Below are positions 33,330-36,195 of a stretch of 64,000 nt of DNA, piece by piece. Source of the DNA: Alphaproteobacteria bacterium (GTDB lineage: Bacteria; Pseudomonadota; Alphaproteobacteria; GCA-2731375). The stretch lies in the NCBI GenBank assembly GCA_965232515.1, contig CBDDPY010000002.1:5088001-5152000 (forward strand). The letters are read 5' to 3'. Position 1 is the stretch's first letter, and each line of letters starts with the position of its first letter. The translations under genes were made by a program, and so were the position numbers. The notes below the pieces were generated by a model. It saw nothing but the letters and a program-made list of their open reading frames with translations. It did not search any database and was not told the origin of the DNA.

Positions 33330-33731
33330 ATGGCCGACAAATTTCCGTTCGAGCTGGTCTCGCCGGAACGCCTGTTGCTCTCGGTCGATGCCGAGATGGT
33401 GACGGTGCCGGGATCGGAAGGCGATTTCGGCGTGCTCGCCGGCCATGCGCCGCTGATCTCGTCGCTGCGGCCGGGCGTCATCGAGATCGACGGCGTCGAT
33501 GAGGCCGATCGCCGGATCTATGTCGGCGGCGGCTTCGCCGAGATTGTCGGCGGCCGCCTGACCGTGCTGGCCGAGGAAGCCGTGCCGGTCAGCCAGCTCG
33601 ACCGCGCCGCGCTCGAGCAGCGCATTCGCAACGCCGAGGAAGACCTCGAAGACGCGAAAGACGATGCAGCCCGGGCCAAGGTGCAGGCCCAGCTCGATCA
33701 CCTGCGCGGCATGCTGGGCGCGGTGAACTAG
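33330..33731 (+). CDS. atpC: ATP synthase F1 epsilon
   Basis: FELVSPER, PGSEGDFGVLAGHAPL. Confidence 0.97.
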   Translation: MADKFPFELVSPERLLLSVDAEMVTVPGSEGDFGVLAGHAPLISSLRPGVIEIDGVDEADRRIYVGGGFAEIVGGRLTVLAEEAVPVSQLDRAALEQRIRNAEEDLEDAKDDAARAKVQAQLDHLRGMLGAVN

Positions 33732-33767
33732 GTCCGTACCGGCTTCGGTCGCAGCAACCAGAACCGG

Positions 33768-34778
33768 TCATGCTGGCGAAGGCCAGGAGGTGGATTCACA
33801 TTCGAAGTGCAACAGGTGTTCGATGAAGACCTCGGCTGGGGTTCTGTAGTCAAGGCATTTCCGCGGCGTGGTGTTGTAGGCGCGCAGGTATTGGTGCAGG
33901 CGCCGGCGGTTGAGCTCGTCGAGGTTTGTCTTTCGGGGGATGAAGCGTCGGAAGCGGCCGATGGCGTTTTCGATGCCGCCCTTCTGCCAGGGGGCATGGG
34001 GGTCGCAGAAGTAGGTTTGCATGTCGATGTGCTGGAGTTCGGTGTGGCGGGCGAATTCGGTGCCGTTGTCGAAGGTGACGGTCTGGCGCAGGTCGGGCGG
34101 CAGGTCGGCGAACAGGGCGTGCAGGTGGTCTGCGATGGGCTGTGCGGCCTTACCCGGTGGCCGGGTGGCGAGGAGGATGCGGGAGAGACGTTCATGGCAG
34201 ACGAGGATGGCCTGGCCGTAGGTCGCGAACAGCATGAGGTCGGCTTCCCAGTGTCCCGGGGTTGTGCGGTCGTCGACGTCGGCCGGGCGATCGGCGATGG
34301 GCACGCGGCCGGCGATGAAGCTGGCCGGGCTGCCGCCCCTGCGGCCGCGCCAGCCGCGTTTGCTTTTGCCGCGCGGCAGCAGCAGGCGCCAGCGGAAGTC
34401 CTGGGTGCGGGCGAGCTGGGCATAGACGAAGCGGTAGATGCTTTCATGCGAGATGACGTGTTGGCCGGCGGTGTGGGCGAGCCGGCCGGCGACCTGTTCC
34501 GGCGACCAGCCGCGTTTGAGGCCGTCGAGGACGCGGTCGCGCAAGCTCGGATCGCGTTGCAGGCGGGGCCCGGACCAGCGCCGGGCGCGGGCCTGCTGCT
34601 GGGCATAGGCTGGCTTGTAGCCGACCTGTCGGCCGCTGTTGCGTTTCAGTTCGCGAGAGACTGTTGATGGCGCGCGATCCAGAGCTGCCGCGATTTGCCG
34701 GATCGAGCGGCCGGCGGTTTGAAGGCGGGAAATCTCACACCGCTCTTCCAGTGACAACTGGGCGTAATCGGATCCCAT
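33768..34778 (-). CDS. IS30-family DDE transposase
   Basis: N-terminal HTH (SIRQIAAALDRAPSTVSRELKRN), WSPEQVAGR, GHWEAD, TFDNGTEF, PWQKGGIEN; GGAGG RBS. Confidence 0.95.
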   Translation of the reverse strand: MGSDYAQLSLEERCEISRLQTAGRSIRQIAAALDRAPSTVSRELKRNSGRQVGYKPAYAQQQARARRWSGPRLQRDPSLRDRVLDGLKRGWSPEQVAGRLAHTAGQHVISHESIYRFVYAQLARTQDFRWRLLLPRGKSKRGWRGRRGGSPASFIAGRVPIADRPADVDDRTTPGHWEADLMLFATYGQAILVCHERLSRILLATRPPGKAAQPIADHLHALFADLPPDLRQTVTFDNGTEFARHTELQHIDMQTYFCDPHAPWQKGGIENAIGRFRRFIPRKTNLDELNRRRLHQYLRAYNTTPRKCLDYRTPAEVFIEHLLHFECESTSWPSPA

Positions 34779-34826
34779 CGCAACACCTCCAACACAAGGT
34801 GTTGCACTTCGTTTGTGAACTCAGGG
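33787..34826 (-). mobile_element. IS30-family insertion sequence (ends uncertain by 1-3 bp)
   Basis: Imperfect terminal IRs tggattcacattcgaagtgcaaca (33791-33814) and tgttgcacttcgtttgtgaactca (34800-34823) around a single transposase. Confidence 0.9.
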
Positions 34827-34906
34827 CATCCATCCGACGTCCGGCCGATTCACATTCAAGTCAATTGGATCCTGGCCTTCGCCAGGATGACGGCCGTGGT
34901 GGTGGT

Positions 34907-35704
34907 CTAATCCGCGGCCGTTGGCCGGCCCGGTGCATTCTCCAATTCGCCGATCCATTCCAGGCAGGCTTCGGCGATCTGCTCCCAGCCCGGCTCCAGC
35001 AGCAGCATGTGGCCGAAGCCGTCGAACTCCAGATAGGTCGAGACGTGCTGGTATTTCTCGGCCGTCTTCCGCACCGTGCCGGTCGAAATCACCAGATCTT
35101 CCGACGCGCCCACCACCAGCAGCGGGCAATCGACGTTCACGGCGTTCACGTAGGACGCGCGGCGGACGTCGAACATCCAGAAGATCATTTCGAACAGCGC
35201 GCGGCCGGACTCGGGCCCGCAGCGCTCGAAGATCTGCCGGGCCTCGGCCTCGCCGAACTGTTTCAGCGAGTCCTCGCGGGCGATCTCGTAGACCGGTTCC
35301 AGGGCCTGGGACCAGAACGTCCCGGCGTTGAACAGGTTGAGCGCGACGCCGATCTCGCGGTGTGAGCTGGGCAGCGCGCCCCAGGTCGGCGCCGGCGTCA
35401 GCAGTATGGCGGCCTGGCAGAGGTCGCGCGCGGCCAGGATCTGGGCGATCAGCCCGCCCATCGAGTGGCCGATCAGAACCGGTTTTTCGGGCAGGGCGGC
35501 GATTTGCCCGGCGACGTCGTCGGCATAATCCTGCAAGCCGATTGTGGCGAGCGCCGTCGCCGACTCGTCGGTGCTCCGGTCGCCATGATGCGGCAGATCC
35601 AGCGCCAGTGTCCGCCAGCCGCGGTCCTGGAACCAGGGTTGCCAACGCTCGAAGCACCAGCGTCCGGCGAAGGCGCCATGCAGCATGACAATCGTGTTCG
35701 GCAT
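34907..35704 (-). CDS. Alpha/beta hydrolase
   Basis: VMLHGAFAG, IGHSMGG nucleophile elbow, GFGHM; ATG at 35704. Confidence 0.88.
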   Translation of the reverse strand: MPNTIVMLHGAFAGRWCFERWQPWFQDRGWRTLALDLPHHGDRSTDESATALATIGLQDYADDVAGQIAALPEKPVLIGHSMGGLIAQILAARDLCQAAILLTPAPTWGALPSSHREIGVALNLFNAGTFWSQALEPVYEIAREDSLKQFGEAEARQIFERCGPESGRALFEMIFWMFDVRRASYVNAVNVDCPLLVVGASEDLVISTGTVRKTAEKYQHVSTYLEFDGFGHMLLLEPGWEQIAEACLEWIGELENAPGRPTAAD

Positions 35705-35718
35705 GCGCGCGGACTGGC

Positions 35719-36195
35719 TCAGGCGTCGGCGAGGTGGCGGAACGTGGCGACTACCTGCTCGTAGACGTCGCGCTTGAACGGCACGATCAGGTTCGGCAGG
35801 TCGTCCATGGCCGCCCAACGCCAGGCGTCGAATTCGGGATGTTTGGTATTGATGTCGATATCGCTGTCGCTGCCGGTAAAGCGCATGGCGAACCATTTCT
35901 GGGTCTGGCCGCGATAGCGCCCCTTCCAGACCTTGTCCGCCAGCGATTCCGGCAGATCGTAGGGGATCCAGCCAGGGCTTTCGGCCAGGATTTCGGCCTT
36001 GTCGGTGCCGATCTCCTCCGCCAGCTCGCGCCGCGCCGCTGCGGCCGGTTCCTCGCCGTCATCGATGCCGCCCTGCGGCATCTGCCAGGCTTCGACGCGC
36101 TGATCGATGCGCTGTGCCACGAAGACATGGCCGCGCGGGTTCAGCAGCATGATGCCGACACAGGGTCGGTAGGGGCGTTCGGCGAAAGGACGCAT
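35719..36195 (-). CDS. rppH: RNA pyrophosphohydrolase
   Basis: [21 protein letters not shown]...RELAEEIG (Nudix box), YRGQTQKWF. Confidence 0.95.

Follow-up and report, generated by a model that had tools for sequence, protein, structure and literature searches.

An IS30-family insertion sequence found at a fixed base of CGTC-tagged hairpin repeats, with a transposase gene that commonly ends on a stop codon of its target

In this study, we analysed a window of 64,000 nucleotides from an alphaproteobacterial genome (GenBank assembly GCA_965232515.1, contig CBDDPY010000002.1, positions 5,088,001 to 5,152,000), in which an insertion sequence (IS) of the IS30 family lies inside a hairpin repeat downstream of atpC, and in which the transposase gene of the IS, having no stop codon within the element, ends on a stop codon of the interrupted repeat. 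Our data make it very probable that the element, active now or until recently, belongs to a widespread IS30 subfamily, which uses a particular class of repetitive extragenic palindromes (REPs), the CGTC-tagged REPs, as its landing site.

Insertion site in the host genome and in relatives

BLAST searches of the host genome recovered six full copies of the IS, 97.5-99.8 % identical to the window copy (the matches extending by up to ~60 nt into flanks that carry the repeat), and all six, together with one remnant, interrupt the same base of a 26-bp hairpin repeat, in agreement with the initial annotation of the window copy as an IS30 element seated in a REP stem. The flanks of the six copies read GTCAT[C/G]CTGGCG[A/C]AGGCCA on one side and TCCA on the other, varying from copy to copy in the loop (GAAG or GCAG) and at stem position 6 (G or C). 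The remnant (G000:C2:3856703-3856802, where G000 is the host genome; 100 bp, 89 % identical) has kept the beginning of the gene and the left inverted repeat, beyond which GCA, TCCA and a partner repeat in decay can still be read; with it, the insertions at this position of the repeat number seven, the seventh being degraded. The whole repeat family amounts to ~2.6 kb of the 7.39-Mb genome and holds all full copies as well as the remnant, a placement far beyond chance. The features of the window locus are the following:

33789..34825, minus strand: IS30-family insertion sequence, 1037 bp, with ends set by the six host copies and 73 evaluable relatives
33768..34778, minus strand: transposase open reading frame (ORF), 336 aa, with ATG at 34778-34776 and GGAGG 8 nt upstream of the ATG
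33789..33814, minus strand: right inverted repeat (IRR), 26 nt, wholly within the coding frame (...LLHFECEST)
34800..34825, minus strand: left inverted repeat (IRL), 26 nt, matching IRR at 20 of 26 positions
33767..33785, plus strand: long part of the interrupted hairpin repeat REP1 (GTCATGCTGGCGAAGGCCA), comprising the GTC tag, the 5' arm, the GAAG loop and the larger part of the 3' arm
33786..33788, plus strand: left target-site duplication copy, GGA, which deviates from the GCA expected from the other arm of the repeat
34826..34828, plus strand: right copy of the target-site duplication, GCA
34829..34832, plus strand: short part of REP1, tail TCCA
34833..34865, no strand: spacer of the repeat doublet, 33 nt
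34866..34891, minus strand: intact partner repeat REP2, tail-to-tail with REP1
33330..33731, plus strand: atpC (F1 epsilon), upstream neighbour given for context, 94 % identical at the DNA level in the same-genus genome G001
34907..35896, minus strand: convergent downstream gene, a 329-aa ORF given for context, syntenic in G001

Two models of the element fit within the host genome, namely a 1040-bp insert without duplication and a 1037-bp element with a 3-bp duplication of the target. The initial annotation had adopted the former by removing 33787..34826, and the halves rejoined in this way do give GTCATGCTGGCGAAGGCCAGCATCCA, a repeat variant with five intact copies elsewhere in the genome; as element ends, those coordinates proved wrong, being ruled out by the 3-bp duplications in relatives. 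Because the flanking triplets of the relatives agree and covary, we place the element at 33789..34825 with a 3-bp duplication, which is perfect in four of the six host copies (TCC/TCC in gene orientation) and one base off in the window copy and in a second one, copy B. At the window locus, GGA (33786-88) and GCA (34826-28) differ in the middle base only, and it is this difference that made a cut without duplication look perfect; the left copy is taken as the deviant one because the standard doublet predicts GCA. The collapsed IS contig of a public run, X9, spans 33788-34826 and breaks at this variable middle base on both sides. The inverted partner hairpin is present at 34866-34891 as first annotated, and without the IS and one copy of the duplication, REP1 and REP2 are offset by 59 nt, as in a standard doublet.

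The spacer of this doublet contains a fragment (34847-34864) that resembles bases 5-24 of IRR (18/20 with two 1-nt gaps), adjoins the REP2 tail at 1 nt and has a score reached by 0/2000 shuffles. No other such fragment was found in the genome outside the IS copies and the remnant, and 24 other doublet spacers lack it; it may be the relic of an earlier insertion.

Among relatives, we compared the best 80 of 339 confirmed loci, with transposases 60-72 % identical, from sources including Bradyrhizobium, Dehalococcoidia, Nitrospira, Acidobacteriota, Ignavibacteriales, Sphingomonas and others. Together with the six host copies these made 86 loci, from which seven reaching a contig end were dropped, leaving 79 evaluable loci under 34 genome labels. 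The rejoined site forms the hairpin in its canonical position, with at least 7 of 8 stem pairs, in 71/79 loci across these labels, which bears out the earlier proposal of an IS30 lineage landing in REPs at a fixed base, orientation and frame. The tabulated flanks of copies and homologues share the stem position, encode variable tails and are not identical; since they differ and match variants that stand intact elsewhere, the repeat halves are target DNA and not part of the element. Furthermore, the 3-bp duplication is identical in 66 of the 79 loci, has one mismatch in 12 and two or more in a single locus, and it covaries among near-identical elements, with TAC/TAC, TTC/TTC and ATC/ATC in one metagenome-assembled genome (MAG), and GGG/GGG, CGG/CGG, ATG/ATG, CCC/CCC and GGA/GGA elsewhere.

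The eight exceptions to the canonical hairpin comprise one element reversed in its repeat (L030), one in a bulged repeat (L035), one with 6/8 pairs (L073) and five in a single Dehalococcoidia MAG. These last, at non-hairpin sites (L036, L038, L040, L043 and L044), keep ATGAC at the standard distance in 4/5 cases, and identical 3-bp duplications likewise in 4/5, L044 having AGC/TGC. This distribution points to the sequence on the tag side as what chiefly decides the choice of target; the genome-weighted target profile reads TGG[AG]|T[CT]C|C.GC.T.CGC.GG.A[TC]GAC. In two further loci, L025 and L026, from MAGs labelled Hyphomonadaceae and Oleiharenicola and hence assigned to different phyla, the 3' flank of the IS is identical and the 5' flanks are different; the shared flank may be a binning or assembly artefact, or reflect a rearrangement at the IS.

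An empty site downstream of atpC, which the initial annotation had suggested seeking in relatives, is present in X9, a run with an organism code and a study different from those of the window. A 336-nt contig of this run consists of 33600-33786 (6 differences), an A, and 34828-34889 (1 difference); it is the orthologous site with an intact repeat (...GGCCA GAA TCCA...) and without the IS, and its length is that predicted for the loss of 1037 + 3 bp. Run X3, from a second sample with the organism code of the window, reads across the left junction and hence has the IS as well; run X4 covers parts of the IS only. A joint in run X5 was rejected as an empty site, being another repeat doublet with a different spacer and not this locus. 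The same-genus genome G001 was likewise uninformative, with atpC and the convergent gene kept and ~40 nt between them (L102:774-815), without the repeat pair. The whole repeat doublet, beyond the IS alone, has therefore been gained in the window lineage or lost in G001, which fits doublets as mobile units.

The target repeat family

A census of the host genome allowing up to five mismatches gave 102 matches to the repeat, 96 intact and 6 interrupted, with compensatory changes at stem positions 5/22, 6/21 and 8/19. Exact matches to the repeat pattern numbered 70 in the host genome and 262 in G001, and there were none in 39 other sampled relatives. The transposase had no match in G001 (81 % complete) despite the 262 repeats, and because this genome carries the repeats without a detected transposase, we regard the repeats as independent of the IS. 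Moreover, exact free-standing matches were found in a Bradyrhizobium lupini genome (41), a Nitrospira genome (5) and a Dehalococcoidia genome (45), where controls with the reversed pattern gave 0 matches in each of the three host genomes.

CGTC-tagged REPs have been described as consisting of an unpaired (N)GTC tag, a stem, a loop and a CCA tail (Di Nocera et al., 2013; PMC3733652). The host repeats, which mostly form doublets, carry an NGTC tag, an 8-bp stem starting with AT, a 4-nt loop and a CCA tail, and fall within the form defined for this class (tag, stem of 8-9 bp from AT, loop of 4-5 nt, CCA tail). By these features of sequence, the target repeats are CGTC-tagged REPs, or Ssn-related NTS/SRM repeats. 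The former 'apparently lack a dedicated transposase' and show 'a few fortuitous associations' with transposase genes (PMC3733652). For the latter, Chenal et al. (2025; PMC11893778) described a connection with Ssn, small single-strand nucleases of the GIY-YIG type encoded by genes that such repeats flank; the whole words 'IS30' and 'insertion sequence' do not occur in that article. The link with an IS is an addition to the literature on both.

The published degenerate SRM motif is fitted by 51/102 of the repeat matches, many of the misses carrying a G before GTC, which the motif excludes; its matches number 140 in the genome versus 27 in the reversed genome. In this context, we detected a 97-aa single-domain GIY-YIG ORF (PF01541, 59.1 bits) at G000:C2:3988578-3989100 (locus L112:1392-1920), bracketed by inverted CGTC-tagged hairpins at -109, -67, +104, +145 and +195. 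This gene has the architecture published for Ssn nucleases and is a candidate Ssn gene; its product had no match among PDB sequences and a sub-threshold hit only in NCBIfam. Similar GIY-YIG/repeat cassettes were found twice in the Dehalococcoidia genome and also in the Bradyrhizobium genome, and the PF01541 search of the Nitrospira genome returned no small GIY-YIG gene, just a 621-aa frame. Two Y1 (IS200/RAYT-type) matches of the host genome (G000:C2:3708196-3708483 and 5932606-5932827) both lie more than 1.5 kb from repeats of the CGTC type.

Transposase and borrowed stop codon

The transposase scored 238.8 bits against the NCBIfam model NF033563 (transpos_IS30, cut-off 80), with Pfam matches to HTH_38 at residues 5-47 and to rve at residues 174-263. 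The catalytic residues D180, D237 and E270 are spaced by 57 and 33, which fits the spacing D-(54-61)-D-(33)-E quoted for the IS30 family (PMC2516522). Furthermore, the length of 1037 bp, the single near-full-length ORF and the inverted repeats of 26 nt lie within the range of the family (~1.0-1.2 kb, inverted repeats of 20-30 bp), and the 3-bp duplication agrees with its short target duplications (2 bp in IS30, 3 bp in others). Judged by these characters, the element is a member of the IS30 family. No close homologue of the IS was found among 40 sampled relatives of the host, the best being 42 % identical, and in a distant IS30 relative (L003), whose terminal repeats were sought for a comparison of stops, no clear terminal pair was found.

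The transposase reads ...LLHFECEST through IRR, continues as SWPSPA and ends on a TGA (33770-33768), which is the reverse complement of the TCA in the repeat's GTCAT; the duplication and the repeat, beyond the IS, supply the last six codons and the stop. This confirms the initial claim of a gene that lacks a stop within the IS and terminates on the REP's TGA. In 79/79 loci no stop interrupts the frame before the element ends, the nearest one lying at +12 nt. In 53 of them the stop falls on the TGA of the repeat's ATGAC, at +18 nt, giving a tail of six residues; in the other 26 it lies at +12 to +654, or none is reached within the locus. Where the stem starts with GT in place of AT (GACGAC, the Bradyrhizobium type) there is no stop at that point, the tails run from 8 to ~218 residues, and the elements with long tails are multicopy.

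The C-terminus was also compared in the best 120 of 7925 homologues (E <= 1e-30). The motif HF[EK]CEST stands near the C-terminus in 114/120, and 85 of those 114 have a six-residue tail, in 37 versions (e.g., FPLSRE, SPLSRG and CPPSRA). The six-residue tails read as the translated repeat arm, and most longer tails start alike; since the 37 versions match the translation of the repeat arm, the tail is encoded by the target and is not conserved. The earlier suggestion that proper termination depends on correct targeting holds for the position of the stop in the 53 loci, and not beyond them, as 26/79 frames end elsewhere and long-tailed copies are multicopy. A short tail is the usual outcome, though not necessarily a required one.

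We propose that the transposase, with its N-terminal helix-turn-helix (HTH) domains and DDE core, would recognise the repeat asymmetrically, most likely as double-stranded DNA sequence, and would insert by a 3-bp staggered cut at the base of the stem on the side of the CCA tail (5'-TGGA|TNC|NGGC...), with the gene always oriented towards the tagged end of the repeat. As the frame is open through the right inverted repeat, translation would enter the target, and because position, orientation and frame are fixed, it would meet the TGA at exactly 18 nt after a copy-specific tail of six residues. The missing stop could then be a by-product of the overlap between gene and inverted repeat, tolerated since precise targeting renders it harmless, and would not need to be a regulatory device. 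Transposition presumably follows the copy-out/paste-in route via a circle, as in IS30. The imperfect duplications most likely arose by gene conversion between copies, which would run out into the homologous repeat flanks, or by carry-over of the 3-nt junction spacer of the donor; measured against the repeat's other arm, the 13 imperfect cases have the deviation in the 3' copy (7), in the 5' copy (5) or in both (1).

Rival readings, known systems and significance

Several points weigh against the reading of a subfamily that homes to CGTC-tagged REPs. In one Dehalococcoidia MAG, 5/8 copies are at non-canonical sites, and 1/79 copies is reversed, so that target specificity is strong, not absolute. 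The frames of 26/79 loci end off the repeat's TGA, with two loci reaching no stop, and the link between targeting and termination is consequently not universal. Imperfect duplications affect 13/79 loci, including the window copy and copy B, and at the empty site of X9 the middle base of the triplet is A (GAA), against G and C at the window copy. Moreover, the conserved positions of the target are also conserved in the repeat family, which makes recognition of sequence and of structure inseparable on this basis. Finally, in the four public runs, all consisting of contigs, no circle back-joint was listed.

Among the alternatives, one that we consider possible though doubtful is a control module under selection, made up of the stop of the target and the hairpin that is kept, acting on the stability of the transposase mRNA or on ribosome stalling, so that transposase output would depend on the landing site. 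REPs near stop codons have been reported to affect mRNA decay and translation in E. coli. In our data, the frame is open to the end of the IS in every evaluable copy, across phyla, and the duplication restores a stem-loop of 7 bp whose end coincides with the TGA, with a folding energy of -7.2 kcal/mol in 5/6 host copies and -4.5 in the window copy. Against such a module stand the unconserved tails, in 37 hexapeptides, the 26/79 copies that end elsewhere and the multicopy state of long-tailed Bradyrhizobium-type elements, as well as the precedent of IS1239, whose flank-supplied stop goes back to a 1-bp deletion that occurred under relaxed constraint (PMC13630536).

It is unlikely, in our view, that the transposase recognises the folded hairpin, as single-stranded DNA or a cruciform, and not the double-stranded sequence. 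Stem bases of the target do vary with compensation, Ssn nucleases cut these repeats as single-stranded DNA (PMC11893778) and the hot spots of the IS30 family are nearly palindromic (PMC9333248), all of which would suit a folded target. However, the insertion point is off-centre in the palindrome, the orientation is fixed, and 4/5 non-hairpin sites keep ATGAC at the standard distance; in addition, the DDE transposases of the family act on duplex targets, integrating by a staggered cut, which the 3-bp duplication fits.

A far-reaching extension of the preferred reading, which we regard as rather improbable in its entirety, would make the subfamily a specialised parasite of Ssn-associated CGTC/NTS repeats in at least six phyla, for which the repeat would serve as both a 3' cassette and a safe landing pad. 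The stem-loop rebuilt by the duplication and the TGA would then set mRNA stability or translation, mis-landed copies would carry long tails, and the likeness of the repeat tail (TGGATTC) to the tip region of the right end of the IS would indicate a choice of target that evolved from the known inverted-repeat targeting of the family.

Random insertion, with survival only in harmless intergenic repeats, is very improbable: the repeats do lie in spacers between convergent genes, where insertions are cheap, but harmlessness cannot yield single-base precision and one orientation in 71/79 loci under 34 genome labels, nor confine six of six copies to the small repeat fraction of a genome with far more intergenic DNA. 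That the hairpin halves belong to the element, the genomic repeats being solo ends or miniature inverted-repeat transposable elements, can hardly be correct, for although the six copies share ~20 nt on one side and ~6 nt on the other and BLAST matches start at 33767, the flanks differ between copies and each matches an intact variant elsewhere, the duplication covaries across sites, 96 intact repeats face six IS copies, G001 has 262 repeats and no detected IS, the orthologous site in X9 is empty with its repeat intact, the flanks match the repeat variant of each host, and the repeats are unlike the 26-nt inverted repeats beyond one 7-mer.

The preferred reading, that of an IS30 subfamily landing in CGTC-tagged REPs, has precedents for each of its parts. 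Like IS30 of E. coli and IS1655 of N. meningitidis, the element has a single transposase with an N-terminal HTH and a DDE core, inverted repeats of ~26 nt with non-matching tip bases, a duplication of 2-3 bp and a preference for nearly palindromic hot spots (PMC9333248; PMC2516522). Unlike in those elements, the hot spot here is a host repeat family of tens to hundreds of copies, the element inserts away from the centre and in a single orientation, and its gene lacks an internal stop, the copy-out/paste-in route being presumed. For IS30 itself, the favoured targets are its own ends and hot spots of nearly palindromic sequence, and the duplication is 2 bp long, and base mismatches where IR and HS join undergo processing by the repair machinery of the host (PMC9333248). 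The repeat tail and duplication of the present target, TGGAT[T/C]C (34826-34832, minus strand), correspond to a TGGATTC located 2 nt from the right-end tip of the IS (33791-33797), a shared 7-mer expected by chance about once in 40 such comparisons on a rough estimate; it could point to a relation between the choice of target and the inverted-repeat targeting of the family. IS1630 of Mycoplasma fermentans, also of the IS30 family, reportedly targets inverted repeats, with long variable duplications of ~19-26 bp and not 3 bp.

As in the 'type 1 association' of REP-specific ISs (Tobes and Pareja, 2006), the REP is split at one and the same base in every host copy, and joining its halves gives back a REP. 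Known REP-specific ISs are ISPpu9, ISPpu10, ISPa11 and ISRm19 of IS110, ISPsy8 of IS3 and ISRm22 of IS4 (PMC1525189); they have other transposase families and other REP classes, and in that source neither cross-phylum spread nor a borrowed stop is described for them. The same source ascribes the imperfect direct repeats of ISRm22 (3/9 copies) to recombination between copies, and places IS1655 near REPs in just 2/13 and 2/6 copies. Stops supplied by the flank are known from IS870 and ISMt1 (both with a CTAG target), IS1547, IS1110 and IS1239 of S. pyogenes (PMC13630536), the last being an IS30-family element (PMC11602124). Like the IS870-type elements, the present one has no stop inside, the frame being open to the element end in all copies, and its C-terminal residues are encoded by the target. 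In IS1239, the missing stop stems from a lineage-specific 1-bp deletion, in an element with 13-15 bp repeats and variable sites (PMC13630536), whereas here it is a trait of the whole subfamily, with the stop at a fixed distance in a specific repeat in 53/79 loci. REP-targeting ISs and target-supplied stops are thus each known, and their combination appears to be new in the literature searched. That search returned no IS30-family element specific for REP, CGTC or NTS repeats, with ISfinder and most subscription journals outside its scope, so that a named element may exist.

In brief, the IS30 family joins the transposons that home to host hairpin repeats, with a precision of one base and one orientation, and does so in Alphaproteobacteria, Dehalococcoidia, Nitrospira, Acidobacteriota, Ignavibacteriales and a Verrucomicrobia-labelled MAG. 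The finding connects three literatures, on CGTC-tagged REPs, on Ssn nucleases with their NTS/SRM repeats and on the hot-spot targeting of IS30. For annotation, it accounts for the variable called lengths of these transposases (335 to 501 aa) and for repeat halves mistaken for IS ends. In addition, the repeat is a natural, sequence-defined 26-bp target of a DDE transposase, of use for studying how the HTH domains of IS30 transposases choose their targets, and it could become a possible basis for a site-directed insertion tool.

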